Assembly (NCBI RefSeq): GCF_038025025.1 | Contig: NW_027117342.1 | Location: 682,001 to 746,000, forward strand | Origin: Phyllosticta citribraziliensis | Taxonomy: Eukaryota | Reading direction: 5' to 3' | Length of the DNA stretch: 64,000 nt | Shown: in pieces, positions 21,376-62,270 of the stretch | How positions within the stretch are numbered: the stretch's first letter is position 1 | Layout: the number at the start of each line of letters is the position of its first letter | The notes under the pieces: generated by a model | The model's input: the letters and a program-made list of their open reading frames with translations, nothing else | Told to the model about the DNA's origin: nothing | The model's database searches: none | Made by a program: the position numbers and the translations under genes

Positions 21376-21915
21376 TCCTCCTTTCTTACCCTCCACTCCG
21401 TCCACCGAAATCTTTTGTAGACGCGTAGGCTACGAATTCCGCCTGCAGCCTCAAGATCACGCACTCGCCTCAGAAGCCTATATCAGCTCTCGGCCCTTCA
21501 GTCACCAACCATCCTCCTCACACTCCACTCCACCGACCTCAAATACGTCTTTCACGCCCCTTCCGGTTTGTCCAATCCCACAGATCACGTCCACAACTAC
21601 TGCTAACCTACATCCAGCCAGTGCGCCGCCCCAGCCAGCAAGCTGAACGGAGGTCGCCATTACTTCCCCAACCAAATCTCACTAGTCTGCCAAGTCCGTC
21701 AACAACACCAACCAACAGCCCAAGTGAACACCCAACACGGATCCAACCTCACCATCGCCACTCCGCTGTCCGGAGTCTACCACGAGCCCAGGCTGAGCTC
21801 AATCAGCCACACCGCTGCCCTCAGAGCTCTACTTCACTTCACTCTGAAAGTTGCCGCACTCACTTCCGACTGCAGTCGGTAGCAAAAACCCTCGCTCACA
21901 TCCAAATCCAGCACC

Positions 21916-24900: not shown

Positions 24901-25804
24901 GGATGACCGAGACAAGGCCTACGAAACATTCAACGACCCAGAGGACTTAACATGCGTCATGACCGTCAACACCAACCTCGGCTGCTCGTCTTTCCAGGCG
25001 CAACGGGCGTGTCATATCACGGTTCTTCTGGACTTTCCCGCCTTTCCCTCGCCTCGCCTCTTTGATCAGCTGATCGGACGAACTTGGCGCATGGGCCAGG
25101 AGCACTCGCCTTTGTTCATCACGATGACCACGATTGCCACCTACGACCACATTCTGCAAGGAATCTTTGCGCACAAGGCAATCTTGCAGACTGCAGTTCT
25201 GGCAGACATCCCAACAAAGCGCCAGCCAGCGGTTGAAAACGCCAACGACGATCAAAACCAGGACGAAGCGGCCCAAGATCAGGCGACTGGCAATGCCAAT
25301 GCAGAGGAGCAGCAAGAGGAGCGGGTGCAAGGAGAAGCAGATGCAGACGAAGCTGCAGATGAAGCTGCGGACGGAGCGACAGATGAGTTTGCAGATGACG
25401 CTGTGCGCAAAGAGCTTGACTCATTCATCGAAAGGACGACCGAACTCTACATGGAAGCCGTTGGCTTATCTTCGTCGCGCCTGGGCTGGGACAGGGCGAG
25501 TTGCGAACAGGTCCAGCAGCTTGGACCGTGTGCCGATGCCACTCGCGCTTATTCGGTCCTCCCCCCCGAGCTGGGAGGAAGAGCCGGTCCGCGGATAGGC
25601 CAACCGGTAGTTCTAGACGTTGACGAGGACAGTGATTTGTCCAATGACGAGCAGCAGGATATTGTCGAGGGGCCGGGTGAGTGTTCTTCTTCAGGAAGGG
25701 CGACTGGAGGGGCGACAAGTCAGGGAAAACGGGCAGCAAGCCGCGAGCCCGAGAATCCGGCGAAGAGGCAGGCGATGGAGGGGGAAGCTTCTTCGAGCAA
25801 ATGA
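21916..25804 (+). CDS. SNF2-family (SF2) ATPase/helicase-like protein, ~1270 aa, two exons (intron 24700-24775)
   Basis: Motifs LKPHQ, SDVGMGKT (I), ILDQAH (II), LTSTP (III) and QLIGRTWRMGQ (VI). A phase-0 GTACGT...CTGAC...TTCAG intron joins ORFs 21916 and 24800 in frame (ILQE|VLYKQKSKVLVF). Confidence 0.88.
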
Positions 25805-29768: not shown

Positions 29769-30170
29769 TTGTCACCGACGGGAGAAGGTCGTTCCTCGGA
29801 CGATTTGTACGCGCGGATCAGCTCGCGCTCGATGGCGTACAGTTATTCAGCCATTCTCTCATCCATAGGGTTGGCAGTGCGCTGGGCTCTGGGATTGTCC
29901 CAGGAGCTCTCTGTGTCGTGCCTGATACTAGATTCCGTATCCCTCGAATGAAGGCGGACGAAAACGACTTGTTCGTCAGTGTGAAGCTCCTGTGCAGTCT
30001 CATTTGCCTTGAGCTCGACCCTTCTAGCCAGTGGTAGCGGAAACGATCAGCACGCCCGTCTTGTGGTGCTCTTCCTCGAAATACACCAGCGGCATGACCA
30101 CAGCGCAGGAAACCTCGGTCTTGCCAGTACTGGGTGGGCATTGGATCATAGCCATACCGTATGGCATGGC
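29769..30170 (-). pseudogene. SF1 (Upf1-like) helicase fragment
   Basis: MPYGMAMIQCPPSTGKT...PLVY...VLIVSAT, then after a frameshift VVFVRLHSRDTESSI...LIRAYKSSEERPSPVGDK. These match GIGIVQGPPGTGKT...VVVRVHARHTESSI...LTGVYRRAIHKPFGVGDK of 34050-37085. Confidence 0.8.
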
Positions 30171-30175
30171 TCACA

Positions 30176-31863
30176 CTAGAGACAGAGAATTGAGGGCGCC
30201 GCAAAGTCCTGAAACTCGGACTTGACGAGGTTGACGAGGCAGGGGTGCCGATTTCCGCACTTGCATCGCGACTTCGATTCGAAACAGATCTTCCGTTCAT
30301 TGTTCTCCACGTTGGACTCCAAGATTAGGTGGGCGGCGTTAACACAGTGGCGGTTGCCACAACGGTGGGAACAGTCCAGTCCGCCCAGCACATATTGATC
30401 GAAGTGATTGTGTGAACTGTCGATTCAACTATCTACTGAGCTGTCCGTTTTATGGAAAACACCAGATGGCTTGCCTAATTCGGCATCGCCGTCTGCAAAC
30501 GGACCTCCGCGATATCGCGGACTAGGCGCGCTGGTTGAGCAGGTTGCCTGATTCGATCCGACACGTATGCCCTCCATTCGTCCCTAATCATGAGACCGCA
30601 GCCAATGGTGACTGCAAGGGCGATGTTGATTGAAAGAGTATCACGGCGGTCACAGGCCTCGCAAAGGCCAGAAGAACAGTCCTTACGTCGAACGCTGGGT
30701 TGGGTTGCCGTCGCGTAGATTCTAGGAGCGACGTGCAGACAACCACCATTGGTTGAGAGGTTGTCTGGGAGTTGGTTGTCTGGGAGTTGGTTGTCTGGGA
30801 ATTTGCCGGGGTTCTCGCTGAAGATCGTTTGGACTTTGCTTGCATTCTACCGATTCAGGTTGGGGACAAAGCGGGACATGATGTTGTAGGCGAAGTCGCT
30901 CATCCCCTTCATCCATTTGTGGTCATCCCAGATAGCGATGGCCTGCCGCATGCACGCCTGTTGCTGGAGGCTGCGCATTGGCCGGTGGTCGTCCGGGATT
31001 TCCGCCAAGTACCCGCGCGAAGTCTGGCGATAGTGTTGGGCTCCTTTGGGGCCACAGTGGTCGATCGCTTGTATCCTTTCATTTTTTCGCCAGACCGAGG
31101 CATCCCTGGACAAGAAGCCGAAGCCGAGCGCGGTGCTAAAGAAATGTAAGCTTCAAGGGTATTGCACGTAGGACTAGGTTCTTACAGTCTGGCGTAGTGC
31201 TCATCATCCACAAATGATGATGCTGGTGACACGGACCGTGAAGATGTCGGGGTTGGAGAGCGACTGCGAGATGGGCTTGACGGCGACCTGCTTCGTGGGC
31301 GGGGTTGGCGACGTCCACGGCGAGGGCTCTCGTTGTCTTCGTCCTGCTGGCCGTCGTCCTGTTGGCCGTCGTCATACTCGTCATCGTCGTTCTGCTCGCC
31401 GTTGTAGACATCGGAGTCCGTGCCGCGTTGGGAGTCTTGGAGCTCAAGCTCCTCGTCAACCGAGGACTCGACACGTAGGCGCTTGCTGCGGCGACGCGAT
31501 GACTCCCTTGACTTTCTGTAAGAGGGATTAGAGTGTGATGGAAATGCGGTGGGGCCTTCACTTACGTAGCAGACGCGGATGCTTGAGCGACGGCTCTGGG
31601 GCGGCGACGCGAGGGCTCTTCCGACTTGCTGTGAGAGGGATTAGAGGGTGTTGAAAACGCGATGAGGCCTCCACTTACATTTCAGACGCGGATGCTTGAG
31701 CGACGTCTTCGGGCTCGCTTTCGTCAAGGTTGATTGCATTGCTTGCCGACGAGCCACTGACATGAAACTTTCTGGCAATGCTGAGCATCGCAAGTTCCTG
31801 GTAGGCGTCAAACTCAGCCTTGGACTTCACGCTTTTGAGCGCGTCAGTGAGTGCTTTGTCCAT
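30176..31863 (-). pseudogene. His-Me finger (zinc-binding loop) endonuclease family gene, disrupted
   Basis: C-terminal DCSHRCGNRHCVNAAHLILESNVENNERKIC...CKC...PCL. The upstream domain aligns with 52382-53440 (NR*NASKVQTIFSENPGKFP; IGCGLMIRDEWRAY). Stop at 30847 where paralogues have Trp, and a ~170-bp insertion at ~30391-30563. Multi-exon 5' part from ATG 31863. Confidence 0.8.
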
Positions 31864-32191: not shown

Positions 32192-33440
32192 ATGGCGCAC
32201 CTACTGACAAGACCCAGCAGAGACGCACACACCACCGCAGTCAACCTCCAATCCTCTCGACAAGTAAGTTGATTCGTTTTCCTCTTGACGTTCGCATCGA
32301 CTTCACCTTGATACTGACACGCAGTAGTCGATTCCCACCACGGAAGAGCGTTACCTGCAACTGTCCAAGCAAGCGAAGACCGTTGCCGAGGTCGAACGGT
32401 TGGAGAATGCCTGGCTCACCTTCACGGCCCATCGCGCCCGATGTGAAACCAGCGGCACCAACGGCATCAATTCGGAAGAGGATGACGTCGTCAAGGCTGA
32501 AGAGGAGATCAAGGCCGAGCCTGGCACGCCCGAGACTCGCGAGACTCCCAAGATAGACTCGTCTTTGTTCAGGACTGGGGCCAGCGAGGATGACCCCGTA
32601 TGCATCGACTCGGACAACGACGGAGAAACCACTACCCGCCTCGACGAGCCCTCTTCATCGTCAGCCTCTTCTGGGTCTCATTCCTCTCTCTCCAACACCC
32701 TCACCAATGCCGCTACCTTCTCGTCTTCCCGTTCGTTCTCCTCGAAATCCGCTCAACCGGCAACAACTTCATCTGTCGATGCCATGGACGGGCTTCGAAC
32801 AGGAGACGGTCGATTCAAGAAGAGCACCCGCCGCCGTCCCGTCGTGCTTGACACTGATGACGACGAATCAATGACACCTTCCGACAACTCAAGGACCCCG
32901 TAGCCAGCGCGAGACGTTGCCAACAGCCCGACCCCGACGCCAGCGCCAGCGCAAAACGTCACCGGAAGCGGCCGCTCAGCGCCAAACCCCCTCCCAACTC
33001 CAGCCGACCAGTAAGAAAGCATCCAATGTTCTCTGTCGAGTGGATACTGACACTGAACAGAGCGCCGCTGCCGGGTTCGCCTTCATCAACGGCAGAAGGT
33101 TGGGACCGGAAAAGTACAAATGCAGGGTCGAAGGTTTCGCAGCAGAGCATCACATCCACGGCAAGATGGATTGGGGTCTACCAAAGCAGAACCTCGCGCG
33201 CGCTATTTCCCCCCCCCCGGTCCCCCAAGCACAAGCCCGCAAGCAGGAGGGTGGGCAGGTCATGCTTTGCGTTTGCCGTCACCATGTACGACAATCGCGA
33301 GTTTTTGCAGGACCTGCAGCGGTTCGCGCGTCGCTACGTCGTGTGTTGGATTGACCAGTCCCAGCCTTTGAAGCACTGGGACCCCTCATTGGGACAGACC
33401 ATCTTTTCCGAGAACCCTTGGTTGAACCAACCAGGAAATT
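32192..33440 (+). pseudogene. Truncated paralogue of the His-Me endonuclease family (N-terminal domain only)
   Basis: HHIHGKMDWGL...KHKPASRRVGRSC...LKHWDPSLGQTIFSENP aligns with DHPQGTQDFGL...EHKSVRRQTEKAC...LNHWDPTKGQTILSANP. Stop at 32901, frameshift in the C-run near 33210, introns near 32264 and 33012. No nuclease motif downstream. Confidence 0.7.
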
Positions 33441-33599
33441 TAAACCAACCACTAGAAATAGAGCTTTGCACCTTCAACTACCTAAGTAGTAAAATGAAGT
33501 GTCGGCTCAGGATTTGTCCCCTTGTCCATGCCGTGTCGTGTAAATTCCTAATGGCCTCGAGGATAGCATCTAAAGCAGCATTCAAAGCAGGCTTGCGAA

Positions 33600-33850
33600 T
33601 AATCCCTACTCACTGTTTCGAGCGCATGATGGAGGCGCTGATGCGGCGACAGGCGGAACTGTGCTCCTCCGGCGCAACCACCAGGGGCTGGATGGGCGTA
33701 GCGCTGCGGTACGTCTTGTCTATTCCTGGATGGCCTTGAATGATACCGACCGCGGTTGGCAGCGCTCAGTCAGGACATGATCATCGCGGCTTTCTGCTCG
33801 GCGTTGAGCTTGTTCTGAAGGAAGCTCATCGCCTTTGTGGCAGGCTCAGA
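33600..33850 (-). pseudogene. SF1 helicase fragment (Q motif and decayed Walker A)
   Basis: KAMSFLQNKLNAEQKAAMIMS*, a 4-bp CTGA duplication, then ALPTAVGIIQGHPGIDKTY...IQPLV. This matches CAMELVESRLNPGQVAAVTMTRSLPSGIGIVQGPPGTGKTF...VQPLI. Confidence 0.75.
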
Positions 33851-34049: not shown

Positions 34050-37000
34050 TCAGACATGCTCGAACTCCGGCAATTTCAAGACCTTCGGCTCGTCAAAGTA
34101 GACGGCAGAGCGTCTCGTCTTTTTGAGTACTCGCGAGACATCGTACAAGCCCGAAGGTCGCCATCCCTTTGTGAGGGGAAGGCGTCGGTCCATCATGACT
34201 ATCATGCCGAAGCGTGCCCGTGACAATGCGACGTTGATGCGGTTGCCTTCGGACAGGAAACCAAGCTTGTCGCTGCGAACGAAGTCGACTATGGTGTAGT
34301 CGAATTCTCGGCCTTGGATGCTGTCGAATGTCTCGATCATGAGGTCCGAAAAGCCTTCATTCTGCTCACTCATCTCGGCTTTGGCTGCGATGTACTGCGA
34401 CACTTGGCTGGCGTAGGGCGTGAGCACGGCGACGCGCGAAGGGTCGATGCCGTACGTGTACAGGTCTGAGATGACCTGCATTGTGACTCGCACGCTTGTC
34501 AAGTTATACGAGGAACCGGAAGCGTCGAATCTGGACTCGCCGTGTGCCAAATCGAATTGCACTGCGGGCTGCGGACATTCGATGTGGTGGACTTCTCGAA
34601 GAAACCTCTCGAACGGGGCCGTATGCTCGCGAAATTCCTCGTCAAGACCCTCAGGCGTCTCGATGGCATCGCCGTAGTACGGCTTGTTGTACACGCTGGC
34701 GATTGCGCTGGCGCTGCGGCGTTGCTCGATCAGCTGTACGTGCGGATAACCGAGAGACTGCAAGCGCGTCATGGCAGAATGCGACAAATGCTCACGCAGA
34801 GGGTTGTTGTACTCGGCGACCGGTTGCAACTGGCGCGAATCGCCAACAAGAAGTCTAGTGGTGCTTTGGGAGTACCAAGCGAAGATCGGCCAGAGGTCTG
34901 GGTCTGATGCTCGGGCTGCCTCGTCCACAATGATGACTTTGGGGTTGATACTCTTGGCCAGCTCGCTATCACCAGCGTTCGAGAGCGTCATGACGAGTAT
35001 GTCCGTTCGCGCTAACGCCACGTCTCTTAGAGCCTTCTGCGCCGCTTGGAATGTGACCATTTCCTCGTCGCCCAATTTGCCTTCCTTGTATCGCGAGTAA
35101 ATTTGACGAAAGCATGAGACGACAGATCTTTCGTTTCCTTTGAGCTCATCGCGCGGGAGGGCTGCGATTGCAAGAATAAAACTGCCGAGACTGTTGTCGA
35201 GTAGCCTTAGGCGCTTATCTCCAACACCGAAAGGCTTGTGGATCGCCCTTCTGTACACGCCGGTCAAGGCCTTCGCAGAAGGGGACTGGTCCTCAATTTG
35301 ACTTGATGATAGACCAGAAGACGATGGACGATGAGAGGGTCTCGAAAGGTCAGCTTCCCGTGTAACAATCGACGACTCGGTGTGTCTCGCGTGTACCCTT
35401 ACCACGACGGGAGTGCGACGGGCGGAGAGCTCGTTTGCAAACACCGCGCAGGTACTCTGCACACGCATCGTGATGTCGTCGACGCTGAGGTTGGAAGTCG
35501 ACAAAATCAACACTTTCGGTCCCTTGTGCGGCTTCGAGTTGAAAATGAGGGGTTGCACGAGGTTCGCGATCGTGAACGTCTTGCCAGTCCCTGGAGGCCC
35601 TTGAACAATGCCGATGCCGCTGGGCAGAGAACGAGTCATTGTCACCGCCGCTACTTGGCCAGGGTTGAGCCTTGATTCCACCAGCTCCATGGCGCAAGAA
35701 GCCTGCATATCATGCTCGATGCCCTCGAACAAGTCAACCGTCGACTCGTTTGAGATGCTGCGGCCCAGAAGAGCGGCCTTTGCCCATCCGAGACCGCTGC
35801 ATTCTTCGAATTCTGTCATGCTGTCTGTAATCCTTGTCCAGGGCTGGTCGGCACCGAGAGTGTACAAAACAGGCACTGGGATAGCGTCCAGTAGCGCTCT
35901 TTGTGATTCTTGAAGCGAAAGCATGGTCTCCATCGGCAGGTAGGCGATTTCAGCGCTGTCATAGTGTCCGTTCTCGTCTGAATATCCTCGGTAAAGGATG
36001 ACCGATGTGCTGTTCGAAGGGGCGAATGGGATACGGGAAGTAACCTTGGCGGTCCACAGAATGCCTTCACTCTGCTCATCCTCTTCATTGTTACAATTCA
36101 CGCGAACTAGTAGAGTGTCCCCTTCGCTGAGCCGATACGCCGCTGCGTTGTGGTTAAGGATGCCGAGGAATTGTGTGTTTCCAGTGTTCGGGACGGAAAT
36201 TAAATGCATCGCTCCTTGCAAGGCCTGGGACTGCTTGCCAAGGACTTCAATTTCTTCGGCAATGGCGCAATTGAACAACGTTCGATAGTGCTGCCAGCTG
36301 GAGAAGACGACCTGCTTTCCGGTGAAAATGGGAGGTCTCGTAGACTTTTGAAGAAGCTGCCCCACGGCGTTGTAGAAACTTGCCAGGGGGTCCTGCAAGC
36401 GGTATTGATGCAGTCGATTGTTCAACCTCTCGAGCTTTTCGTCCATCAACATTTCACTGATGAGGATGTGGACCGATCCGTGCTTAGAGAAGGCTGCCTT
36501 TGTGCGATTGAAAACTTCGAAGACCGACTCGTGAGGCGCCGACGTTCCCATGAGATTTCCAGAAGGCGGGTTTGGAGAAAACGGCACAGTGACCAGATAC
36601 AATGAACAGCCTTTGAGAACCGCGGCATTCATGTACGACTGCACAACCTCCCCTGAGAAACCAAAGAGCTTAAGGACAGTTTCCTTTGTGTCTCCAGTGA
36701 CTTTACACCATTCGACTAGTGCGGGCTGGTCGCTGGCGTTTGCGATGCTGTCATGGGTGAGCCGAATTGTGGCAGCGGTAGAACTTTGGAAACTCTGGAC
36801 TCCTTGAGCTTCTACGAAGTCCATGGATAGTTCGATGTAAGAGTCGAAGCCGTCAAAATTTGCAACCGTAATGTAGGTCGCCACCTTGCTCTCGCGTGCG
36901 GGCGGAGGTTCAAGCATGACTTTGCCCTCTTTGCGCTGGCGGACGGCAGCTTCATGCTCCAAGCCATTGCCAACGACAAGCGACGGCTGAGAATCGGCGC

Positions 37001-37085
37001 AGGAGGCGATTGCAAGGACACAGGAGTATGTGCGTTTTTGCCCCGATGCTTTGGCCCTGTATTCGAGTGCCGTTCGATAGGCCAT
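34050..37085 (-). CDS. Superfamily-1 helicase, Upf1/Sen1/DNA2-NAM7-like, 1011 aa, intronless
   Basis: QGPPGTGKT, IIVDEAAR, LVGDSRQLQP, EQRRS, TFDSIQGREFD and NRINVALSRAR. The ~470 aa N-terminal region is unrecognised. Confidence 0.92.
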   Translation of the reverse strand: MAYRTALEYRAKASGQKRTYSCVLAIASCADSQPSLVVGNGLEHEAAVRQRKEGKVMLEPPPARESKVATYITVANFDGFDSYIELSMDFVEAQGVQSFQSSTAATIRLTHDSIANASDQPALVEWCKVTGDTKETVLKLFGFSGEVVQSYMNAAVLKGCSLYLVTVPFSPNPPSGNLMGTSAPHESVFEVFNRTKAAFSKHGSVHILISEMLMDEKLERLNNRLHQYRLQDPLASFYNAVGQLLQKSTRPPIFTGKQVVFSSWQHYRTLFNCAIAEEIEVLGKQSQALQGAMHLISVPNTGNTQFLGILNHNAAAYRLSEGDTLLVRVNCNNEEDEQSEGILWTAKVTSRIPFAPSNSTSVILYRGYSDENGHYDSAEIAYLPMETMLSLQESQRALLDAIPVPVLYTLGADQPWTRITDSMTEFEECSGLGWAKAALLGRSISNESTVDLFEGIEHDMQASCAMELVESRLNPGQVAAVTMTRSLPSGIGIVQGPPGTGKTFTIANLVQPLIFNSKPHKGPKVLILSTSNLSVDDITMRVQSTCAVFANELSARRTPVVVRVHARHTESSIVTREADLSRPSHRPSSSGLSSSQIEDQSPSAKALTGVYRRAIHKPFGVGDKRLRLLDNSLGSFILAIAALPRDELKGNERSVVSCFRQIYSRYKEGKLGDEEMVTFQAAQKALRDVALARTDILVMTLSNAGDSELAKSINPKVIIVDEAARASDPDLWPIFAWYSQSTTRLLVGDSRQLQPVAEYNNPLREHLSHSAMTRLQSLGYPHVQLIEQRRSASAIASVYNKPYYGDAIETPEGLDEEFREHTAPFERFLREVHHIECPQPAVQFDLAHGESRFDASGSSYNLTSVRVTMQVISDLYTYGIDPSRVAVLTPYASQVSQYIAAKAEMSEQNEGFSDLMIETFDSIQGREFDYTIVDFVRSDKLGFLSEGNRINVALSRARFGMIVMMDRRLPLTKGWRPSGLYDVSRVLKKTRRSAVYFDEPKVLKLPEFEHV

Positions 37086-39906
37086 TTCTATGGTGTCGGC
37101 AAAAACGGGTGAAGGGGTAGTGGTGCTGATCCCAGGGATTTGTTTCGGGTCCGTGGGTGGTGAAGGATGTGCGACGGCCCGATGATCTGGTGAAAGTCAA
37201 AGATTCTGAGTCTGAATTCGAAGGCAGGAATGTCGATGACGGCTTGAGAGCGGTAGAGTAAGAGCGTGGCGACAAGATTTTGATGTCGGTGGGAGGGATC
37301 GCGGTGGTGTTGATTCGGTCGGAAGTGGGCGCCAGACTCCGGGGAGGCCTCAGTTGGTTTTGCGGGTACGAAAGCAGGCGATAGCAGCCAAAAGGTTGAC
37401 CTGCGCCAGTGGGTGGTATTTTGCGTTGGCGGGTAGAAGCGACGCCGTTAGTGTCAAATTCTGCACGGTGTTAACTCCCGTACAGTTTTAATTTCTGTCT
37501 AGTAATAAAGTGTGTTAAACTTGCGACCACCCTTACACATCAGGTCTCGAATGGTCCTGCGTCGTATTCGCGAAAGATCATGAATGCTCCCCCTGTGCCG
37601 GATCAAAAGGCTCGGCAGTGTCCACTGAAATACAGCTGAATGCTGCAAGAAATGAAGAAGTACATAGCCCAGCAAGCCGTGACTCATTGTGTTGACGCAC
37701 CTGCAAAACAATCCAGAGTTTGGTTGCTTTGTCCCCAATGTGTTCACCCGAATGGGATGAGGTTGGTTCAAGCATCGGTGATAGGCCCGAAAACTTCGCT
37801 AAGCGAATCCTCCCGCTGGTCCCTGATCCAGCGCGTCGGGCCGTCGTACTACTCCACGGCGGGGCACGCACCGCCACCCCCCACATGGATGCTTGCAAAC
37901 ACCACAACTGCCCGAGAGCGCGCTTACCTGTCGGCCGACTGCAATAAGTCAGTGAGTAGACATCGCGCAATCGAGGGAATGCTCCAAGCGGCGCAGCGGG
38001 AATGCATTTCCCACCACTACTCGTCCTGGAAAATCTGAGTCCGCAACGACGACATCAAGTAAGGAATTTGCATTTAGCTGGTCAGCTCCGTCTCCACCGA
38101 CCAGTGCCAGCCGATTCTCCGCGGCGGCCCCAAACGCAAAGCTTGCTGCCCTCTCTACCTCTCAACACTACCCCACAACAACACCATTTGGAGCTTTCAG
38201 AGCCCTGTGCGCGACGAAGAAGCATTCATACTTTCATACCAATCAAACCTGAGCCCTACCGACTCGAAGCAGGCGCTGGTACCTGACCCACCGCGTAGGG
38301 ACGTCGCACATTTTCCGCGGCAGGGCACGCGCGTACCCCCACCTCCTCGCAAACACCAAAACCACCAACTCAACGACCGGCCAATCCAACTTCAAATCGT
38401 AGAAACGGGCTTTTCAACCATTCATGTATCTTTTCTATCGCTCCCGACCCCAAAGCCGGTCACCCACTCTTTCTGTACCACTGCCCGGGGCATGAGGCCG
38501 ACTTTCGCATCCGCAAAGAAGGAAAAAACAGCTCTACACTCGAATGCGTCAGTACCACCATGCCGACCCTTTGATCCAGCTTTACAAAGCAAGCCTCCTC
38601 TTCTGCAAGCGGAGTCGCCCTGGAATCACGGGCGGCAAAAGCGGCAAACTCTGTGGCGGGGAATAATACGGGACAAATTTTGAGTGCGCGGTTGCGGGGC
38701 GGAAATCAAGAGGTCAGCGCAAGGGTTGCAAAGGCAGCATGCGGTCGCTTTTGTGCCGCACTGGGGAAACAGGCAATACATTAGTATTCTGAAAGATGAG
38801 TTGGCTTCCTGCGCAGAGAGTGACGGCTACAGTCTGGTTCTTTCCGCAAATTCCGGCGTGTAGCTGAACATCTGGAAGTTTCATGGGAAGCAAAACTCGC
38901 TTCGCGTATCCCTTTTGCGCCCGACGACGGCAAGTCTCAATCACACAGCGCACACCAGTCTGACCGCTACAACGTGGTAGCATCCGGCAGGACGCGATTG
39001 TCTCCCCGCGGAAGCCTGCGCTTGGCCACTATATCAATGACTCTGTTCGCTCTACGGTACACACTTGATTGCCTAGACATCACCCGCTCGAGTCCAGACT
39101 CTGACACTCTTCTCTCTGCGTCTGCTTCGTGCGCCAAAGCCCGAATTGAGCCCTCGTCACCTTGCACGCACCTCGCCGAAATTTCATGATTGAGATTCTT
39201 TGCCGCAATGCGGGTTTCGAGCGGCTTCTGGCTTGTTTGCCAGAAGTGTAGCATGATCAGTTCCAGGTCCGCCGTTCTCTTTGAGCTCTCCCGCACCTCC
39301 ACTATCGACGCTTCTGGATCCGTCTATTGCCAGGGGCTATGATGGGGAGGCTGTCAGCCCCTACCAAAGTTGCGCTGAGGGAGCATTCACACGACACGCC
39401 ACGAAGCACCTACAATACTTTGTGGCTGACGAGCCAGAAGAGCGCTGGCTCGCGCCAGCTGCGGGAAGAGAAAGATGAGGATCAGAAAGCTCAGGAAACA
39501 GCGGCTGTAGCGCCGCTGGTTTTGTGATATCAATGTGGCAGGCTTCTTGAAATTCGGTAGAAGGCAGCGGCCGACTCAACTGCTACTTTCAAGTAGTCTC
39601 TCATTGGCTCCCTCCGCCTTCATCTCTGCGGCGCGAGCTTCAAAGTCACCTAAGTCACGACCAGCGGAACCAAAAATAAGTCAATGTCTCTCATTCAATG
39701 TCTGCGGGCCAACCGCTTCCTGCCTGTATCCTGACTGTCGCAACCAGAAACCAAGCCATTCGGGGCGCGATGTGCAAATAACCTAGGCAAGAGTCTAATG
39801 GATTATCGCCGAGCCGCCCTACTTGTTGCCACCCCACCGGACAGACAGGGTCTTGAGTGGAGACCGCATTCGCTCACGTCGCCCTGCGAGACAGGCCGAG
39901 CAAGGA

Positions 39907-47009: not shown

Positions 47010-47084
47010 GTTTTCCATTCAGTCAATACGACTACTCATGTATCTACTCTACTACGACTGTCTCTTTTCTCGTCCTGGGGGGTG

Positions 47085-48259: not shown

Positions 48260-49310
48260 TCATGTGTCGGTCGGGTGGGAGGCGATTTCCTCGACGTCAT
48301 TGAAGGCAGGACAGTCAGACTTGGCCTCCACTTCATTTCCGAGAGTGCTGGTAGCCTGCACTGGAATTTCCTCAATGGTAGGAGTGCCCTTCATCCACGT
48401 CTCAAGAGGCATCTTCTTCCAGAGGCTGTACTCCGTTTCCTTCCCGCAATGCAGAAGGACTTCAGGTCCCTTCGCAGGCGCGAGCCATCGAAATAGGAAG
48501 GAGGCCTCAGCACCGTAGAGCCAGTTCTTGAAGCAGTAAGTCGCCCAGCGCTGCAAGGTGCCCCGAATCTTGTCGGACACCCCATTGGGGATGTGGAACA
48601 TCATGTCAAACGCAATGATCTTGACGAACGGCTTCCACATGCGGAGGCAAACGCCAAGGGGATTCTTCCTGAAGTGAGCGGCCCATACCTTCTTCCGCTC
48701 TTGCTTGTCCATGTCGCCCAAGCTCTTGGCTCCAATGGGGTCTCGCGATCTTATGATGGCCTTTATCTCATTCCGGATGGCCTCGAGAATTGCGTGCTGG
48801 TACCGAGCAACTGCGGAGTCATGCTTTTTGCAAAGCAGCTCCCTCTTTGGATCAAGTGGGCTCACAGACTGGACGAGATTGCCCATATCATCATGGTCAA
48901 TGTCATGCTTGACGAAGTATGCCAGAGCGCGTAGATCGGACCATTTCCTTCCGAGTGGGTTGACTAATCCATATTAGTAGGGTAAGGTAATGGAAGATGA
49001 CATGCTTACGGTCGGGCGAGGGATCCTTCCGCTGGTTGTCGTCGTTGATGCCCTCAATCAGGTCATCAAAATAACCACATGATCCGGCAAGGTTGACCTT
49101 TCGCGCGGTCATGGCACCACGAGGGGTTGGCTCAGCCACCTGCTCCAGATCGACCTCAGCATGCTTGCGCTTCTTGCTTGCGGGTGTTCCATGGCTAAAC
49201 ATCGTTCATCAAGTTAGACAACTAGGTAGAGGAGCTAATGGTTGTCAGAGCTTTGCTTACCTGGAGCCTGGCTTCGGGCGAATGGGAGTTGATGGCGGCG
49301 TCGTAGGCAT
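48260..49310 (-). CDS. 'Family X' unknown protein, intact copy 3 (~312 aa, introns 49195-49260 and 48964-49009)
   Basis: Two canonical GTAAGC...CTAAY...TAG introns give a 939-nt ORF, MPTTPPSTP...SKKRK...RKVNLAGSCGYFDDL...KWSDLRALAYFVKHD...WAAHFRKNPLGV...KETEYSLWKKMP. Confidence 0.85.
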
Positions 49311-51679: not shown

Positions 51680-51800
51680 TCTGCGTCCAGGGAGCATTCA
51701 TCCAACGACACGTCTGCACTCATGGAGCAGTCATTCATTATCACGTCCGCGCTCAGGGAGCAGCCATCCAATACCACATCCGCACTCAGAATGCACGTTG
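51680..51800 (+). repeat. 33-bp tandem repeat (~3.5 units) of the MITE-internal family
   Basis: Units such as TCCGCGCTCAGGGAGCAGCCATCCAATACCACA with a 33-bp period. Confidence 0.7.
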
Positions 51801-52381
51801 ATGACTCAGGTGGAGTTTTGAGGCCCAGTATGTCCGATAGTCAACCTCGGCAACGAAGCCGCAGCCAATGGACGTTCGGGACGCACATTCGGAGCATTCT
51901 GCAACGCCACACTGGTATTTGGGACAGATGCGATGTTCACGAAGGGGGACGGACGAGGCCAGCAGATCTTTAGCTCATTTGGACGTGGAGACGACGCTCA
52001 TGTCATGGCGGCTGCTTCGGAGTGAAGGAACAGGCGCGAGTTGCACGGGTAGAGCGGGCCAAATCTCGTTGAGCATCTGCGCTGCGCCATGCGGGCGAGA
52101 GGGAAGCTATGTAAAATGTGCCGGACTCGAAGGATGGAAGCGTGTGGGTACTTAATGTGAGTACTGATGTCTTTCTTGTGGTCGAGGTAGCAATGGTGGC
52201 GAGTTCATCTTCATTTTCTGCCTGGTGGTGTTGATTGTACAGATTTTGCATTGGCTCTCCCTTATACCCTGAGCCTTCGAAATCAAATCGTTCTCGTCAA
52301 GCAAAAAGCAAGATTGACCGCGTAAAATTCATGACAAAGGAAACCGACGAAGATACAGCGGGTAAACTCGAGGATTTGGGG

Positions 52382-54120
52382 TTATGCGCGAGAAGAAGTA
52401 GATGGAAACAGAGGATGTTGTGCTGGACGGAAAGGATGCGAGCGAATGGAAACTTCTGACGTCAGGCTCGTAATCGGATGGCAACTGTGCCTGGTGGTAG
52501 CCACCCTACCGCCCAGGGCTTTGCAAGATCGACTCCCATCATTCGGCTGTTGTTGCTGGCATTTCGGGTGCTGCTGGATGACAATGCGGGCGAGTTCGGG
52601 GTCTCCTCTCCAGACTATGGTCTGTGCCTTTCCCGAGATGGCACCCTTGTCGTCTGGACGCAGGGTGGGGTTGTGATCGAGGATGTGAAACAACATCCTC
52701 ATGCTCGACTCTTGGTACGAAGGTACAACCTTCTCCAGGAGGCAGCGGTTGTCTTGCGGACAGGTGCAGACTCTGTTTCTGACGCAAGTGTTGCGCAGCT
52801 CGTTGTGACTGGCCGTCTCCAAGATGAGATGCCATGGGTTGATGCATGTCTTGTTGTGGCAGCGATGACTCACGTGCAGTCTCGCGCCCCAGTATGCCTG
52901 CCAGTCCTCTTCCGTGACAAATCCGCAACCTGCTGATATCACCATGCCGATTGAAACTTGCATCAAGTCCTCGACTTTCATGTTCTGACCGGACTTCTTC
53001 TCCCTGCCAGCTCGAGGGGGGGGGCAACGGTTGCAAGGGAAGCACACATGCTTCCGCTTTGCGTGTTCCTCTGCCTTGATCTTGGTGTCAGAAGAGGGTG
53101 GCGTCAGGATGCAGCCGTTGATTCGTGCTGAGATGTCGCGGGGATGTTCTCGTCCAGGAGGGAACTTGTTGGGGTTGGCGGACAAGATTGTCTGACCCTT
53201 CGTTGGGTCCCAGTGGTTGAGATGTCCGATGAAGAACGTCAACCACCAACGTGCATACTCGGCAAATACTCTCAAGGTCGTGCCATCGTGCCAATTCGAC
53301 AGTATTCCAGCCAGGCATGCTTTTTCTGTCTGTCGGCGAACGGACTTGTGCTCGAAGGGCAACTTGCGGAGCATGCCGAAAGAGACAAGCCCAAAGTCTT
53401 GGGTGCCTTGTGGGTGGTCCGTGGCCTTGATGGCGATCAACCTGTAGTCGTCCCTGTCGTCCCTGAAGACGCGGTGCCAGTTGACGCGGACTTGTTGACC
53501 ACTGAGGTTGTGTCAGTACAAGTCTTGCATGATGGGAAGGGTCACTTACGACGAAGGTGGGGTTGACCGGTCGGCAAGATTTTGTCGACGCCGGACAGGT
53601 GCGGCGGTGTTCTGGTTGCCATCGTCGTTCTGAAGAATTCGACGCTGGGCGGAACGCGTCACGATCATATTCGGCCCGGGGCTACAAGGGGGTTAGCTTT
53701 GCATGAGAGAGGAGTAGCAAACCAAAATACCTCGCTTGTCTCCTTCCACGGTCGTTACCGAGATGCCATTCAGCCCCGTCGCCGTCTTCGTCCGAGGAGG
53801 AAGCCAAGTCAACAACATGCACATCGCGCTCTGGCTGGATGTTGTCGGCTGTGGTGCCATTGGCTGGCTGGGTGTTGTTGTCTTGCTCGACACTGTTGAT
53901 TGGCTGGATGTCGTTGGCCTGCTCGACATGGTTGACCGGCTCGATGTTGTTCGCTGGTGCGGCGTCGTCGCCTGTCAGGTCGATCACAGGAGGAAGACAG
54001 AGAACCGGACGTTGAGGACAAAGGGCTTGAATGAAGAGAGGCGGAAGAGGCGGGTGGTGAGGACAAGCGGCTTGGAGGAAAAGAGAGGCGAGGCGGGGGA
54101 GACGGGTGGCGAGTAGTCAT
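52382..54120 (-). CDS. His-Me finger (zinc-binding loop) endonuclease family protein, most complete copy; 5' structure uncertain
   Basis: LHVSHRCHNKTCINPWHLILETASHNELRNTC...CTC...RCL motif and a CNRC pair in the 352-aa ORF. Upstream exons are separated by introns near 53500-53550 and at 53682-53730. The link to ATG 54120 needs a frameshift or an unseen intron. Confidence 0.75.
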
Positions 54121-54967: not shown

Positions 54968-57931
54968 TTAGCGTCGCCCACGCCCGGCCTTCGCTGAGGC
55001 AGCCTCGTCTAGGCCGCTAATCGCCGCAAGCTTGTTGACTTGAGCCTTCGAGAAAGAGAATACCTGCTTCAAATGACGGTAAACCTGGGGAAATGAGCTC
55101 CGATCAAATGCATACTCATCCTTGTTTTTAAGTGAGTCCCTGTTCAGGACGATGATGAGGCCGTATTGCGCTCGAGAAATTGCAACGTTGACTCGGTTGT
55201 TCTCTTTCAGAAACCCAATTTTGCTCGTTCTCACAAAATCCACGATGACAAAGTCGAATTCTCGCCCTTGAACTGAGTCGAAAGTTTCAAGCTGCAAATC
55301 GGAGATCGAAGGGGTCGCCTTGGCCAACTCGCTTCGCGCGATGTCATAGAGATCTCGTTGTGCAGTGTACGGGACCAGAAGAGCGATTCTGGAGGCGGAA
55401 ATTCCCTCGTGAACAAGTCTGCGAATGCAGTCCATGACAATCTTCACATTGACAACGTTGAAGTGCGACTTGGAAGCGCTCTCGCGCTGGTCGTCGCCAT
55501 ATTTGACATGAAAGAAAAAGGCACTGCGGTCGTCGGCTCCCAACGAATATTCCTTTTGCATGGCGCGTCGAAAGGGCAGCGCTTGCTCATTCAGTCTCTT
55601 GTTGACGCTCGCCGGGGTAACCAGTCCACCCTCGTAGAAAGTGTCTGAGTATATCTTGGCGATTGAGCTCACGCTTCTACGCTGCTCAACAAGCATTTTG
55701 GCCGGATATCCGATCTTGCGGAGCCTGGTCATGGCTGACAGAAGCCTTTGGTCGCGGAAAGAGTTCTGGAAGCTTGTTGCAGGCTGCAGCTGCTTGGAAT
55801 CACCCACAAGAAGCTTTGTGCCCTTTGGATACCTTGCGAAAATAGGCCAGAGATCCGGGTCAGTGGCGCGGGAGGCTTCATCAACAATGATTGCGCTGGG
55901 CTTGATGAAGTTGAAGAGCTGGCGATCGCCGGCAACTCCGAGAGATGCCACCACAACGTCGGCTTTCATCAACGCGGCTGTGCGGAGCTCCTCTACCAGT
56001 AAATCAAGCTGGGCTTTTAACTCTTGGTCAGCCATTTCTTTCCGCCGGAAGCACTGGCAAAGATTGCGCAATGAAGAGAAGCGCGACTGTCCCTTCTTGG
56101 CATACAGGCTGTCCATAAAGCCCGACATCTGGAACATCAGGTTTGCCAGGCTGTACTCTTCGAGCCTCAAGCGCTCATCCACAATCTCGGCGTTATGGTA
56201 TGTCGGAAGATTGTTGAGAAAAAGCAATCTCTCGGTTTCCATGGAGTGTAGCCTAACGACCGTCAAATTCCGAGTCGAGGCAAGTTGGCGACTCGTCTGG
56301 TCGCAGAGAGACTTGACACGCACAGCGATGTCATCGACGCTAAGATTGGACGTCGAGAGGAGCAACACGGGCGGACCCTTCGTCATGCTGCGGCGGTCGG
56401 AGAAAACCAAAGGCTGGACCATGTTGGCAATTAAGAAGGTTTTCCCTGTGCCAGGTGGTCCCTCCACGATCCCGACACCATTTGGCAAAGCCCTGGTTAA
56501 TTCCAAAGCTGCGGCCTGTCCGGGATTGAGTCTTGACATGGCCAGCCACAGAGCCTCGGAGGCTTGCTCGTCACGTTCAACATCAGCGTACATGTCGATG
56601 GACTTTTGCTTCGGAATCATGTGGCCCAGCAAGACACCTTTGACCCATTGGCAACCGGGCTCCTCAGTGATGATCTGCAGGGCTCTCAGGGACCTTTGGA
56701 TGTGAATGGCCTTTCCTTCGTCATGATTGCGGTAGTCGACACCGAGTTGCGGAGCCTGGCGGATGGCGTCACAGATGGTACTTTCAGACGCTGTGCTTCC
56801 CACGGTAATTGCAGCCGAAAGCACATTCGCATTCCATTGATTTGTCCAGTCGTTGACGTCCTGGCGAATCCGGAGAGTAACTGTCTTTGGAAGTGTCGAG
56901 AAATTTTTCTCCACAACGGTTGCATTGGCACTGGGCCTCTCCATGTCGTCAGAGGCATCCTCATTGTCAGAAACCGTCTCCGAGGTGGGCCTTCCGAAGT
57001 AAATCTTGAGCATTTCGCCCCTGCCAAGTCGGTATTTCTGGGGATCATGCTCGAGGACACCGAAAAGACAGCCACTCGCAGAGTCCGCGATCAAAACCAA
57101 ACGGATTTTTGACTGATTGGTATCAAAACGTGCCGCGTCCCCTTCCTCTTCCTCAGTGGCTGCGATGCGCATGATTGTGGCATACTGAAGCCACTCGCTG
57201 AAGACAATCTGAGCGGGCAATCTCAGGCTTTTCCGCTCTTCTTTTGCCTTAAGGTCGGAACACGTGAAGTTTATGGCAGACGAGCGATAGAACTGGTGTA
57301 AAGGTTCCACTTGTCGAAGCTTTTCGAACAATCTGTTAAACTCTTCCAACTCTTTTGTCGGCTCGAACAACCTCCAGCCAAGGGCGTAAATAGTTCCATT
57401 TTGAGCAAAGCATTGCCGTACTTTCTCGATCGTAGCTTGATGCGATCCATGCGATATCCAGCGAGTCTCTAGGCCTATGGATGGCGGGTATTTGGCGTAG
57501 GAGACTTTGAGAATGTGCAGCGGCCTGCTCATTTTCGCTGCGACCCCGATGCAACGAGCGAGGTCTCCGCGTTCCAGACCAAAAAGACTCATGGCTTTGT
57601 CCATTGTATCGTCGGTCAGCATTTCAGCCGTCATGCGAGATGGCTTGCCGTTCTCATCGACAACTGTAGTGCGATTCAACCGCACGAGGATATCGGAAGT
57701 ATGTTTGACACACACATTGTTGTTGCGCAGATCATAGCATCGGAGATTGCAATCTACGACGGAGTCATAACCGCGATGTTCCTCGAAGAGCAGAGAGGAG
57801 TCGATGTGTGGAATACCGTCGCGTATCTTGAGATCGTTTACATATGCCTCAGCGCCAACGACAGTGGGCTCGGTGTCGCCCATGGGCTTGATTGCCAGAA
57901 TGCAAGGAAAATTGAAAGCGCGGCCTGTCAT
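54968..57931 (-). CDS. Second Upf1/Sen1-like SF1 helicase, ~987 aa, intronless
   Basis: EGPPGTGKT, IIVDEASR, LVGDSKQLQP, EQRRS, TFDSVQGREFD and NRVNVAISRAQ. MTGRAFNFPCILAI aligns with the N-terminus of 34050-37085, which places the start at 57931. Confidence 0.9.
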   Translation of the reverse strand: MTGRAFNFPCILAIKPMGDTEPTVVGAEAYVNDLKIRDGIPHIDSSLLFEEHRGYDSVVDCNLRCYDLRNNNVCVKHTSDILVRLNRTTVVDENGKPSRMTAEMLTDDTMDKAMSLFGLERGDLARCIGVAAKMSRPLHILKVSYAKYPPSIGLETRWISHGSHQATIEKVRQCFAQNGTIYALGWRLFEPTKELEEFNRLFEKLRQVEPLHQFYRSSAINFTCSDLKAKEERKSLRLPAQIVFSEWLQYATIMRIAATEEEEGDAARFDTNQSKIRLVLIADSASGCLFGVLEHDPQKYRLGRGEMLKIYFGRPTSETVSDNEDASDDMERPSANATVVEKNFSTLPKTVTLRIRQDVNDWTNQWNANVLSAAITVGSTASESTICDAIRQAPQLGVDYRNHDEGKAIHIQRSLRALQIITEEPGCQWVKGVLLGHMIPKQKSIDMYADVERDEQASEALWLAMSRLNPGQAAALELTRALPNGVGIVEGPPGTGKTFLIANMVQPLVFSDRRSMTKGPPVLLLSTSNLSVDDIAVRVKSLCDQTSRQLASTRNLTVVRLHSMETERLLFLNNLPTYHNAEIVDERLRLEEYSLANLMFQMSGFMDSLYAKKGQSRFSSLRNLCQCFRRKEMADQELKAQLDLLVEELRTAALMKADVVVASLGVAGDRQLFNFIKPSAIIVDEASRATDPDLWPIFARYPKGTKLLVGDSKQLQPATSFQNSFRDQRLLSAMTRLRKIGYPAKMLVEQRRSVSSIAKIYSDTFYEGGLVTPASVNKRLNEQALPFRRAMQKEYSLGADDRSAFFFHVKYGDDQRESASKSHFNVVNVKIVMDCIRRLVHEGISASRIALLVPYTAQRDLYDIARSELAKATPSISDLQLETFDSVQGREFDFVIVDFVRTSKIGFLKENNRVNVAISRAQYGLIIVLNRDSLKNKDEYAFDRSSFPQVYRHLKQVFSFSKAQVNKLAAISGLDEAASAKAGRGRR

Positions 57932-58830
57932 GGCTGCGCGTACTGGGTCACTGTTGTTTGGCCGTACGAATTTCAGCTCCAGCGCGTTGCATGAGTACGG
58001 AGGGGGGAACCAACCTTTGCAAGAATCCGGGCGGAGTAAATTGGAATGTTGACCAGATCTTGAGTTTGGTCCAATGCGAGCGTGGTGATGAGAGTTGAAT
58101 GGAAGTGTGGGGTTCGGTGGGCTGCAAGCGGTGATGGCTGAGGTAGAAGTGGGCACAGCAACCTGAGGCAGGATGGAGTTTCTGGTGCTCGCTGTCGGTG
58201 GTAACTGGCGGGAAGCGATCGTCTGCCCTGCGTAAGAAGCTGGGGAGCTGTGATTCAACACCACACTTACGCCTATGACGGAGGACGATGGAGAGAGGAA
58301 GATGGCGGGTGACGGGGTCTTTGGTGTGTTTGGCAGAGTGGACAGGTGAGCGCTACTCATGAACACTCCTCGGGGATGGCTCTTTTGCTGGCTCGGGTAG
58401 CGGTAGGGCACCAGTTCGAAAAATGGCAGGCAATCTGCCAAGTTGTTGTCGCCCTGTGGGAGTGTTAAAAATGGAAATTTGCGGTGTCAAAATTGCTCAG
58501 CCGACCAAAATTCGTTCCTCCAGCCATGATCTTCCGCACAGTCCAGCACCCTCCATCTCCTCCAAGACAAGGAAAAGTTTGCGCCAACGGGTATACTCTC
58601 CCCTCTCGTCTGCTCCGTCTCTCAAGCCCCCCGTTCACTCGAATTTCTCAAACACAACGCTTCCTGACAAGTCCTTCTCCTCTTTTGCACAGCTCTCTAC
58701 CATTTTCGTCGCCGACCAAACCCCAAGCTCCCCGAAGACGCGCTCTCCTCATTCCACCTCGGTCTACGCTTCCTCTCTCTATCCTTGAAGTCTCTCTCCG
58801 CGCTTCAGCCCCGCAGAAAACCACAGAAGC

Positions 58831-61099: not shown

Positions 61100-62270
61100 C
61101 ATAACCAGGGTTTGAATGTTTGGATGCTCCCGAACATCTTCCTCCTACTTCCTGCTCACAACTGCCAAACCCACTCCGACAGGCATGCCGAGGACACCAA
61201 TGAACTCGATTTTCTCCCAGATCTGGCAATGCTCGCAGTGAAAAGTATACAATTTTCGGGTCCGCGAAGTAGCCTTCTTGCTGGGGCCACCGATCAGAGG
61301 GATGAGGATGCAGTGAGGGACACGTCGCAACGAGCCTCTGATGTCGTCGCGGTGAGGGAAATTGTTTGTCGCCGGTAAATCCTTTCCGTCCGTAAGGATT
61401 TAGAAGTGAGGGCGACCGATGAAGGGCTCAAGAAGGGTCTTGGCATACTTCGCCATTTCAAAGTGGAAATTCGGGTCGTCCCAGACAGAGATCGACCTCT
61501 GAGGCAGCTTTCACCATTTGTCTTTGGACGGTTGGCCAATGCAGTGAGGGACTTGGCGTGAAATGTCGCAAGTATCGTTACGGCCCGCGGAAAAATCCTA
61601 AGTAGAGAGGATATTCTCCCCATTCGCAATGACAAAGTGCTTGATGTCTCCAATGAACGGCTCAAGTAACGATTTGGCATTCAGTTGCATCTCAAAAAGA
61701 AACGCTGGGTTGCAAAATACTGCGATATGTCCCATCAAGTAGCTGGGTTCGCTTGGGCGGAGTAGGTTCAACAGCACGCTCCCATTTGGTGGTTTGTAGA
61801 CTCGGCCTTGGGTACGAACGCGGAGCAGATTCTTCATGCCCCAAGTCTGCGGGCCATCTCGACCGGAGTGGCGAATGATTTTTTTGATCGCATGGCGGTC
61901 AAATTGTAACCATGGCAAGCGGGCTTGTGGTGGGACGGCGCCTTGAACGACGACCTGGTTGTTTGCTTTGTTGGTTCTGGATGCAGATCCGCTGGTGGTG
62001 CTTACCCATCGTCATCATCGTCGTCTTCAGCAAGCGTCAGATCGATCACAACCTTGGGCTTTTTTGGCGCAGGGCCTTCTTCGTCGTGGTCTGTTGTTGG
62101 ACGTGTCGGTGGAGGTGGAGCACCAGCCTCGGGCTTAATTTTTGGCGTCGTGCTTGCGCTTGTAATTGCATTGGTAGCAAGGATGGCCAGGTTTCGGCGG
62201 ACTTCTGAAGACGTGGACTGCGTGCTCTGCCTGGGCAGGAGGCTGATAAGCTCGTCCGTGGAAATCTATT
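61100..62270 (-). pseudogene. Fourth, degraded His-Me endonuclease family paralogue
   Basis: HSGRDGPQTWGM...FIGDIKHFVIANGENILST*DFSAGRNDTCDISRQVPHCI matches HPQGTQDFGL...FIGHLNHWDPTKGQTILSANPNKFPPGREHPRDISARINGCI. FHCEHC matches FPCNRC. Multiple stops, and no intact nuclease motif seen. Confidence 0.65.

Follow-up and report, generated by a model that had tools for sequence, protein, structure and literature searches.

The nuclease gene and its transcripts

The gene described here lies in a 64-kb window of the Phyllosticta citribraziliensis genome (contig NW_027117342.1, positions 682,001 to 746,000; the window is the whole stretch of DNA that was analysed, and all coordinates below are positions within it). 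An initial annotation, made from the letters alone, had described it as a His-Me finger endonuclease fused to a conserved, unrecognized domain and present in four paralogous copies. A 376-codon open frame at 52385-53512 on the minus strand is 100% identical to the annotated protein P0001, which is 474 amino acids (aa) in length and belongs to a gene model that starts at 53929, on a 2.47-Mb contig. Mapping of P0001 back onto the window gave four annotated exons. It is firmly established that this main gene encodes a His-Cys box nuclease (PF05551, I-PpoI-type) with a complete active-site motif, and that the gene is transcribed and free-standing. Its features, from the gene as a whole to single codons, are as follows (HMM, hidden Markov model).

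52382..53668, minus strand: main nuclease gene, minimal RNA-supported coding region; ATG 53666-53668 (M63 of P0001), TAA 52382-52384, intron 53502-53549, 412 aa
53502..54195, minus strand: 5' region with GT..AG introns 53502-53549, 53682-53730 and 54135-54195
53860-53951, minus strand: 36-nt coding tandem repeat in the 5' part of the gene (sequence repeat)
53123..53497, minus strand: orphan N-domain, ~125 aa (P0001 residues 104-228), with a W-rich helical hairpin and an HWDP..GQT..NP motif (HMM E 2.8e-59)
52751..53122, minus strand: Cys-rich linker (GC, CFPCNRC, GCG), then the beta-beta-alpha-metal His-Cys box domain (Pfam, I-PpoI alignment, AlphaFold2)
52763-52882, minus strand: PF05551 match (Pfam E 2.1e-10)
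52802..52867, minus strand: active-site span; His codon 52865-52867 corresponds to I-PpoI H98 and Asn codon 52802-52804 to N119
52784-52870, minus strand: other codons aligned to I-PpoI, namely S97 52868-70, C100 52859-61, C105 52844-46, H110 52829-31, E114 52817-19 and C125 52784-86

Splicing of the gene is documented by contigs of two public sequencing runs. These runs are not on record as RNA and their type is labelled a guess; they are treated as transcript assemblies because their contigs carry GT..AG joints (three of the nine joints seen lie in the main gene), and contig depths were not used to rank genes. All three introns of the main gene are seen as minus-strand GT..AG joints in one contig of run X1, and both the N-domain and the nuclease domain lie within a single exon, the last. 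The same contig keeps, unspliced, the 26 nt at 53868-53893 that the source annotation treats as an intron. Retention of these 26 nt puts the annotated ATG at 53929 out of frame and makes that at 53666-53668 the first in-frame ATG; because the public model joins its start codon to the nuclease frame through this very intron, the annotated N-terminus is probably wrong. Upstream of M63 the frame stays open without an ATG, and by eye this stretch resembles the N-terminus of a relative, P0003. The N-terminus of the main protein is acidic, contains repeats and is probably disordered.

Nuclease genes of this class can be encoded inside group I introns of nuclear ribosomal DNA (rDNA), which is not the setting of the main gene. 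Rfam at the gathering threshold returned 0 families, and hence neither a group I intron nor rDNA, in the 64-kb window, and ARAGORN found 0 tRNAs there. Together with the three GT..AG introns in the contigs, these results bear out the earlier description of the gene as free-standing and interrupted by spliceosomal introns.

The His-Cys box and its active site

The initial annotation had read the C-terminal motif as the zinc-binding loop of a His-Cys box nuclease, and both sequence and fold agree with an I-PpoI-type His-Me finger. PF05551 matches the main protein at E 2.1e-10 and 41.3 bits, against a curated cut-off of 27, and the best solved relative by sequence is I-PpoI (E 0.004 in a HMMER search of the PDB, over I-PpoI residues 92-126). 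In this alignment I-PpoI residues S97, H98, C100, C105, H110, E114, N119 and C125 are all identical in the main protein, and the H, C, C and H of the motif are nearly invariant across 95 aligned proteins. The available excerpts of Kojima and Bao (2022; PMC9587614) name H98, H110 and N119 as residues of the catalytic motif and S97 and E114 as conserved in the group, and describe the eight His and Cys residues of I-PpoI-type nucleases as two zinc sites. For the first of these sites (C41, C100, C105, H110), the last three residues are aligned in the main protein, and the candidates for C41 are the Cys of the invariant GCG, the upstream GC or the C-x2-C pair. For the second (C125, C132, H134, C138), C125 is aligned and Cys residues follow by eye at +6, +8 and +14, giving a site that reads C-x5-C-x-C-x5-C, in which the spacing differs and Cys replaces His.

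Structure prediction for a 285-aa fragment (AlphaFold2, 95 sequences) gave a predicted local distance difference test score (pLDDT) of 94-96 for residues 181-250 and 89 for residues 251-260. The predicted nuclease core consists of strands 208-211 and 224-227 followed by helix 229-241, a strand-strand-helix topology. Foldseek against the PDB with this model returned I-PpoI only, and weakly (probability 0.91-0.92, E 0.37-0.44, 30-47 columns), with no match at E≤0.001. A VIA search also placed I-PpoI first, with Z 4.8 over 124 residues, followed by a row at Z 2.9; the rows below I-PpoI are generic helical matches (Z≤2.9). The predicted model therefore has the beta-beta-alpha-metal fold, and I-PpoI is its best match, though a weak one. 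As in I-PpoI, the main protein would be expected to cut DNA in a metal-dependent manner.

The orphan N-domain

The region upstream of the nuclease had been described as a conserved, unrecognized domain of ~200 aa. It proved to be unrecognized but smaller, ~125 aa (53123-53497), the remainder up to the His-Cys box being nuclease domain and linker. No Pfam match and no PDB match were obtained for it, the VIA wide search gave nothing, and in the ESM Atlas the best feature score was 0.79 and the best structural TM score 0.35, all below the bars of that tool; in these searches the domain matches no characterized family.

The claim of conservation holds within the genus Phyllosticta and fails for a broadly conserved domain. 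A full HMMER pass over 1.84 billion representatives recovered 93 proteins at E≤1e-3, of which, besides the query and the low-complexity repeat protein P0039, only P0002, P0003, P0004 and P0005 reach into the N-domain; these four come from P. citrichinensis, P. citriasiana or P. citribraziliensis, and in the other 87 of the 93 the match is confined to the His-Cys box region. With an N-domain profile, a search of 5.8 billion proteins returned five, all from Phyllosticta. Weak further members were found by a local HMM search among 109 proteins, namely P0026 (1.1e-5) and P0086 (1.7e-4), the latter standing for a 10-sequence cluster in which all six named sequences are from P. capitalensis. In an alignment, P0026 and the environmental P0022 cluster have the W-rich hairpin, invariant GCG and His-Cys box in common with the main family.

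In the 285-aa model the hairpin (helices 55-71 and 73-90) reaches a pLDDT of ~78-90 and the rest of the N-domain stays below 50; modelled alone with 19 sequences, the domain has a pLDDT of 50 and a predicted TM score (pTM) of 0.26. The N-domain is a fast-evolving module of genus-level range that may be partly disordered. Since the DNA-reading sheet of I-PpoI is unrecognizable in the main protein, target choice or partner binding would probably fall to the N-domain together with the Cys-rich linker; the N-domain may thus set target specificity, as had been proposed.

Paralogous copies in the window and their decay

Four further decayed or catalytically dead copies lie in the window within 34 kb, and only the 52-kb copy is intact.

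30206..31092, minus strand: copy A, a pseudogene; N-domain with an in-frame TAG at 30847-30849 and a His-Cys piece (30206-30403) in another frame
32861..33736, plus strand: copy B, an open 292-codon frame; N-domain 33098-33460 intact (HMM E 3.9e-44)
51798..51872, minus strand: 25-codon nuclease-domain fragment (SIGCGFV...LHLSHQ), E 1e-5, 56% identity, ~500 bp downstream of the main gene
61226..61768, minus strand: two tandem decayed N-domain relics with several in-frame stops; one keeps the C-x2-C and neither has a His-Cys box

That the four loci first listed, at 30, 33, 52 and 61 kb, share a domain beyond chance was confirmed by tblastn and by an N-domain HMM, both of which recover all four. 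The 376-aa frame, searched against the window by tblastn, matched 30550-31074 (minus, E 1.2e-19) and the His-Cys exon at 30206-30403 (minus, E 1.5e-7) of copy A, 33227-33436 (plus, E 3e-7) in copy B, and 61529-61768 (minus, E 0.005) and 61226-61492 (minus, E 0.019) in the 61-kb relics; it also detected the previously unreported fragment at 51798-51872 (minus, E 1e-5). The HMM was built from seven sequences, with the 61-kb copies excluded, and searched against six-frame pieces of the window. It matched the main copy (52385-53512, E 2.8e-59), copy B (32861-33736, E 3.9e-44), both parts of copy A (30850-31152, E 1.2e-31; 30478-30846, E 3.9e-7) and the relics (61601-62011, E 5.2e-5; 61403-61510, E 1.9e-4), the best unrelated piece scoring E 0.033. 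Neither a match of the N-domain to a well-characterized family nor a failure of the four copies to align significantly, the two outcomes that the initial annotation had named as contradicting it, was found.

The translated motifs also agree with the earlier counts of three copies with a C-x2-C pair and two with the SHRC...HLILE motif. The main copy reads GTQDF...LNHWDPTKGQTILSANP, CFPCNRC and SHRCHNKTCINPWHLILE; copy A reads GAQHY...LNR*NASKVQTIFSENP, CEAC and SHRCGNRHCVNAAHLILE; copy B reads LKHWDPSLGQTIFSENP and is without a His-Cys box; and the 61-kb copy has CEHC, again without a His-Cys box. In copy A the TAG sits where other copies have the Trp of HWDP, the source annotation ends the truncated protein P0099 at this codon, and the complete His-Cys box motif follows in the other frame after a partly duplicated stretch. 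The nuclease region of copy B is colinear with that of the main copy and has lost the catalytic and zinc residues (ASRIASKAAF...).

Self-blastn of the window found no DNA-level repeats among the His-Me copies, and the paralogues are 23-35% identical in the tblastn matches. With identity this low, the copies are old duplicates and not products of recent transposition. Repeat-induced point mutation (RIP) was considered as the cause of the stops and rejected, the TpA/ApT ratio being 0.38-0.61 and (CpA+TpG)/(ApC+GpT) 1.14-1.45.

Relatives in other species

The closest relative of the main copy is 37-51% identical overall. In P. citrichinensis, P0003 and P0098 have the full motif and keep all eight aligned catalytic and zinc residues; by eye, catalytic residues have been lost from P0002 and P0005/P0094 (both P. 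citriasiana) and from P0086 (P. capitalensis). Beyond the genus, PF05551 is carried by 88 of the 95 aligned proteins, whose N-terminal parts are varied and whose named sources include Lipomyces, Thelotrema, Massariosphaeria and a nematode. A metagenome scan found five short loci (1.0-4.3 kb) with generic PF05551 open reading frames (ORFs), uninformative on linkage to a helicase. On one of these, a 3.9-kb contig, the generic PF05551 ORF lies beside a Mutator-like transposase (L004:397-2385, minus strand, Pfam E 4.1e-36).

Evolution of the nuclease family

The explanation favoured here, with a confidence somewhat above even, is that the main gene encodes a free-standing, probably active site-specific DNase that is undergoing birth-and-death evolution of a selfish or conflict type. 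A cycle of invasion and decay, or birth and death, is inferred because one intact copy stands against four broken or dead ones, decay has occurred in sister species and there are no close orthologues. The family would accordingly pass either through the invade-degenerate-lose cycle of selfish nuclease genes or through the birth and death of conflict genes, and the nuclease gene may duplicate locally along with a neighbouring Upf1-like helicase gene.

Several observations weigh against this explanation. The paralogues, at 23-35% identity, give no sign of recent spread. The equivalent of I-PpoI C41 and the DNA-reading strands could not be placed in the main protein, and fold prediction for the N-domain is confident in one helical hairpin only, so that the region could be largely disordered instead of a true domain. 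The start codon is ambiguous, with an upstream frame that is open without an ATG and an annotated start that relies on the unsupported 26-nt intron. The selfish or conflict interpretation is drawn entirely from pattern, that is, from copy decay and patchy distribution; DNA cleavage by the main protein is a prediction, and any target site or transmission bias would be hypothetical.

The same decay could mean that the family is functionless and that the main copy is simply the last one not yet broken, as four of the five copies in the window are broken or dead and database searches gave no orthologue above ~45% identity. Against this, the main copy has an open frame of 376 codons, a complete active-site motif and spliced transcripts, and we consider the idea extremely unlikely. 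It is also very unlikely, if slightly less so, that the proteins form a domesticated, mostly non-catalytic DNA-binding or regulatory family in which the His-Cys box is a zinc-stabilized binding fold only. Open frames have been kept after catalytic loss, as in copy B and P0086, and P0002 and P0094 share the same catalytic loss; yet none of the eight aligned catalytic and zinc residues is missing from the main copy or from P0003 and P0098, its closest relatives, and the open frames of the dead copies may merely be those of young pseudogenes.

Helicases and other multi-copy neighbours

Four multi-copy families are clustered in the same 48 kb: the His-Me nucleases, Upf1-like superfamily 1 (SF1) helicases, SNF2 ATPases and an orphan family designated famX.

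54971..58486, minus strand: SF1 helicase 2 (Upf1-like, AAA_11/AAA_12; P0100), one uninterrupted frame of 1172 codons, co-oriented with the main gene and 1.3 kb upstream of it
34053..37322, minus strand: SF1 helicase 1, 31% identical to helicase 2 over ~1000 aa, tail-to-tail with copy B and 593 bp apart from it
29924..30200, minus strand: SF1 helicase fragment (Walker A region), 6 bp from copy A
38514-38937, plus strand: second SF1 helicase fragment (similarity search)
21883..25801, plus strand: SNF2-type ATPase 1, with paralogous pieces at 28149-29552 (minus) and 63130-63999 (minus)
48263..49205, minus strand: famX copy 3, orphan family, covered by spliced transcript contigs
39790-40727 and 41365-42102, minus strand: famX paralogues (similarity search)

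The two helicase fragments match at E 1.6e-7 and 2.2e-9. The helicase core matches Upf1 in the PDB (E 8e-29), and in both helicases this core also matches the Mokosh MkoA model of PADLOC (E 5e-55 and 5e-52). A word-seeded search with the first 500 residues of helicase 2 returned only itself and two proteins at 27-28% identity, and in helicases 1 and 2 the ~500-640 N-terminal residues are without a Pfam match. One query set, made up of these N-terminal halves, famX, copy B, P0004 and P0099, gave no Pfam match at E≤0.1 other than a sub-threshold one to SRPRB. FamX had no usable ESM Atlas match either, and a PDB search with SNF2 ATPase 1 gave 0 matches. No transcript contig covers 54292-60583, a span that includes helicase 2, which is uninformative on its expression.

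The distances from the His-Me pieces to the nearest SF1 piece are 6, 593, 1306, 2740 and 3099 bp, in differing orientations, so that for three His-Me members the nearest SF1 piece is less than 1.4 kb away. This repeated adjacency suggests that pairs of His-Me and SF1 helicase genes duplicate together. An explanation that is unlikely, though to be taken seriously, goes further and holds that the SF1 helicase and the nuclease make up a fungal two-gene module for nucleic-acid surveillance or defence, directed for example against transposons or mycoviruses, in which the N-domain couples nuclease to helicase and the SNF2 ATPase and famX are further components. It would account for three His-Me members lying 6, 593 and 1306 bp from an SF1 piece, with relics at 2.7 kb, and for four families that are all multi-copy within the same 48 kb. 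It is also consistent with a second locus on the same contig, where a single annotated protein, P0004, has famX followed by a truncated N-domain, and with the few relatives found for the first 500 residues of helicase 2. The adjacency could also stem from block duplication of neutral neighbours in one region, gene orientation differs in each pair, and all the evidence comes from one window.

The match of both helicases to MkoA is a further point in favour of such a module. The Mokosh defence pair consists of the MkoA helicase with a phospholipase D (PLD) nuclease, and the present locus resembles it in that an SF1 Upf1-like helicase adjoins a nuclease gene. It differs in that the nuclease is His-Me and not PLD and the host is eukaryotic, and the MkoA match spans the generic SF1 core only, for which Upf1 scores similarly. 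A complex prediction with residues 150-650 of helicase 2 and the 285-aa nuclease fragment scored 0.00 in a run in which the controls did not fold, and so speaks neither for nor against the pairing.

A more specific proposal, which on the sequences we regard as rather improbable, is that helicase and nuclease are inherited and duplicated as one two-gene module, a fungal nucleic-acid conflict system serving either defence or its own selfish spread. A captured homing-type nuclease would be tethered or licensed through the helicase by the orphan domain, with SNF2 and famX as accessory genes.

A transcript contig at 49261-51095 (minus strand), between the main gene and famX copy 3, has four joints (three GT..AG and one GC..AG) and frames that include an Arg/Ser-rich stretch. 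It continues through two more GT..AG introns into famX copy 3, which blurs the gene borders there.

Does the cluster belong to a mobile element?

The initial annotation had cast the main protein as the nuclease effector or mobilizer of a genomic island, a role for which no supporting evidence emerged: element boundaries, terminal repeats, a transposase and a recombinase were all sought in vain, and composition is uniform. The domain scan covered the 41 largest of the 158 ORFs (≥110 aa) in the window and found, apart from the Copia pol, no transposase or recombinase among them, and in particular no captain tyrosine recombinase (DUF3435). No element boundary appeared around the main gene, and self-blastn found no terminal or long direct repeats around the His-Me copies. 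Foreign composition was rejected, as the GC content of third codon positions (GC3) is uniform at 0.59-0.67 in all cluster genes.

These results bear on a further alternative, in which the cluster is the remnant of a large mobile element (Starship-like, another giant transposon or KolobokP-like), the nuclease having aided its multiplication and the helicases and famX being cargo. There is a precedent in the I-PpoI-like nucleases of animal KolobokP DNA transposons, as described in excerpts of Kojima and Bao (2022; PMC9587614). The families are, moreover, multi-copy, lineage-restricted and partly decayed, and a young Copia insertion shows that the region tolerates insertions. Against an element stand the lack of a transposase or tyrosine recombinase among the scanned ORFs and of terminal or long direct repeats around the copies, the protein identity of just 23-35% among them, the uniform GC3 and the absence of a RIP signature in the copies, with the reservation that element ends could lie beyond the window. 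The DDD/E transposase and long terminal direct repeats that mark KolobokP were likewise not found here, though a Kolobok transposase might lack a Pfam model. On balance, an origin in a mobile element is distinctly improbable, and local birth and death of a free-standing nuclease gene remains the preferred account.

Relation to known nucleases

His-Me finger group 12 (I-PpoI, PF05551) was reported with 62 eukaryotic sequences, from fungi, in excerpts of Jablonska et al. (2017; PMC5714182). The main protein shares with I-PpoI the S-H-x-C-x4-C-x-N-P-x-H-L-x-x-E...N...C core, the eight identical residues and the predicted beta-beta-alpha-metal topology. It differs in that its gene lies outside a group I intron and rDNA and yields an ordinary spliced mRNA, and in that it is ~2.5 times longer (412-474 aa versus 162-163 aa), with an orphan N-domain and a Cys-rich linker. 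In addition, the DNA-reading strands of I-PpoI are not recognizable in it and its second zinc site reads by eye as C-x5-C-x-C-x5-C.

The KolobokP nucleases resemble it in being I-PpoI-type enzymes that have found a use outside introns in the nuclear genomes of eukaryotes, and in keeping S97, H98, H110, E114 and N119. According to the excerpts of Kojima and Bao (2022; PMC9587614), these transposons belong to animals and their nucleases are small, with a DDD/E transposase encoded next to them and long terminal direct repeats on either side, whereas the main gene, in a fungal host, has no such companions in the window. The free-standing PF05551 proteins of fungi and other eukaryotes, compared at the database level only, are similar in combining PF05551 with varied N-terminal parts and differ in lacking this N-domain, which occurs only in Phyllosticta and two weak relatives.

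The HO endonuclease and the WHO elements of yeasts are free-standing genes derived from homing endonucleases. In them, too, a homing-type nuclease lives on as an ordinary nuclear gene, and numerous decayed copies lie close by. HO and WHO are of LAGLIDADG, intein-derived origin, with known targets and clustering at the target gene, while the main gene encodes a His-Cys box enzyme.

The His-Cys box nucleases in print are those encoded in nuclear rDNA group I introns and, more recently, in one animal transposon lineage. A literature search at the level of titles and abstracts, which did not extend to subscription journals, found no study devoted to fungal His-Cys box genes that are free-standing, although proteins of this sort are numerous in databases. 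The locus represents a known enzyme kind, the I-PpoI type, in a variant with a new front domain, and not a new system. Its interest is that the gene is expressed, that its active site is complete and its front domain new, and that it is set amid its own fossils; it opens questions of how a homing nuclease is re-used outside an intron, where target specificity comes from and whether selfish behaviour continues. If active, the protein might serve as a new rare-cutting nuclease. More unusual is the repeated pairing with a fast-evolving Upf1-like helicase, which, should it recur in other genomes, would suggest a fungal helicase-nuclease system not described before.

Other features of the window

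A young Copia long terminal repeat (LTR) element occupies 42163-47352 on the plus strand, with 268-bp LTRs that are 99.25% identical, a 5-bp target duplication (CTGCG) and an intact gag-pol frame of 1516 codons. FamX copy 2 lies in a frame (41305-42426) that extends into the left LTR of this element. Just upstream of the SNF2 gene, a 158-bp unit is repeated 3.6 times (77% matches) at 20790-21370. The first 16 kb of the window show a strong GC skew of ~+0.2. A giant ORF at 2-16225 on the minus strand, resembling an ALS-repeat adhesin, has at least 5408 codons, runs off the start of the window and carries Candida ALS-type repeats in its C-terminal third (Pfam E 9.6e-119).

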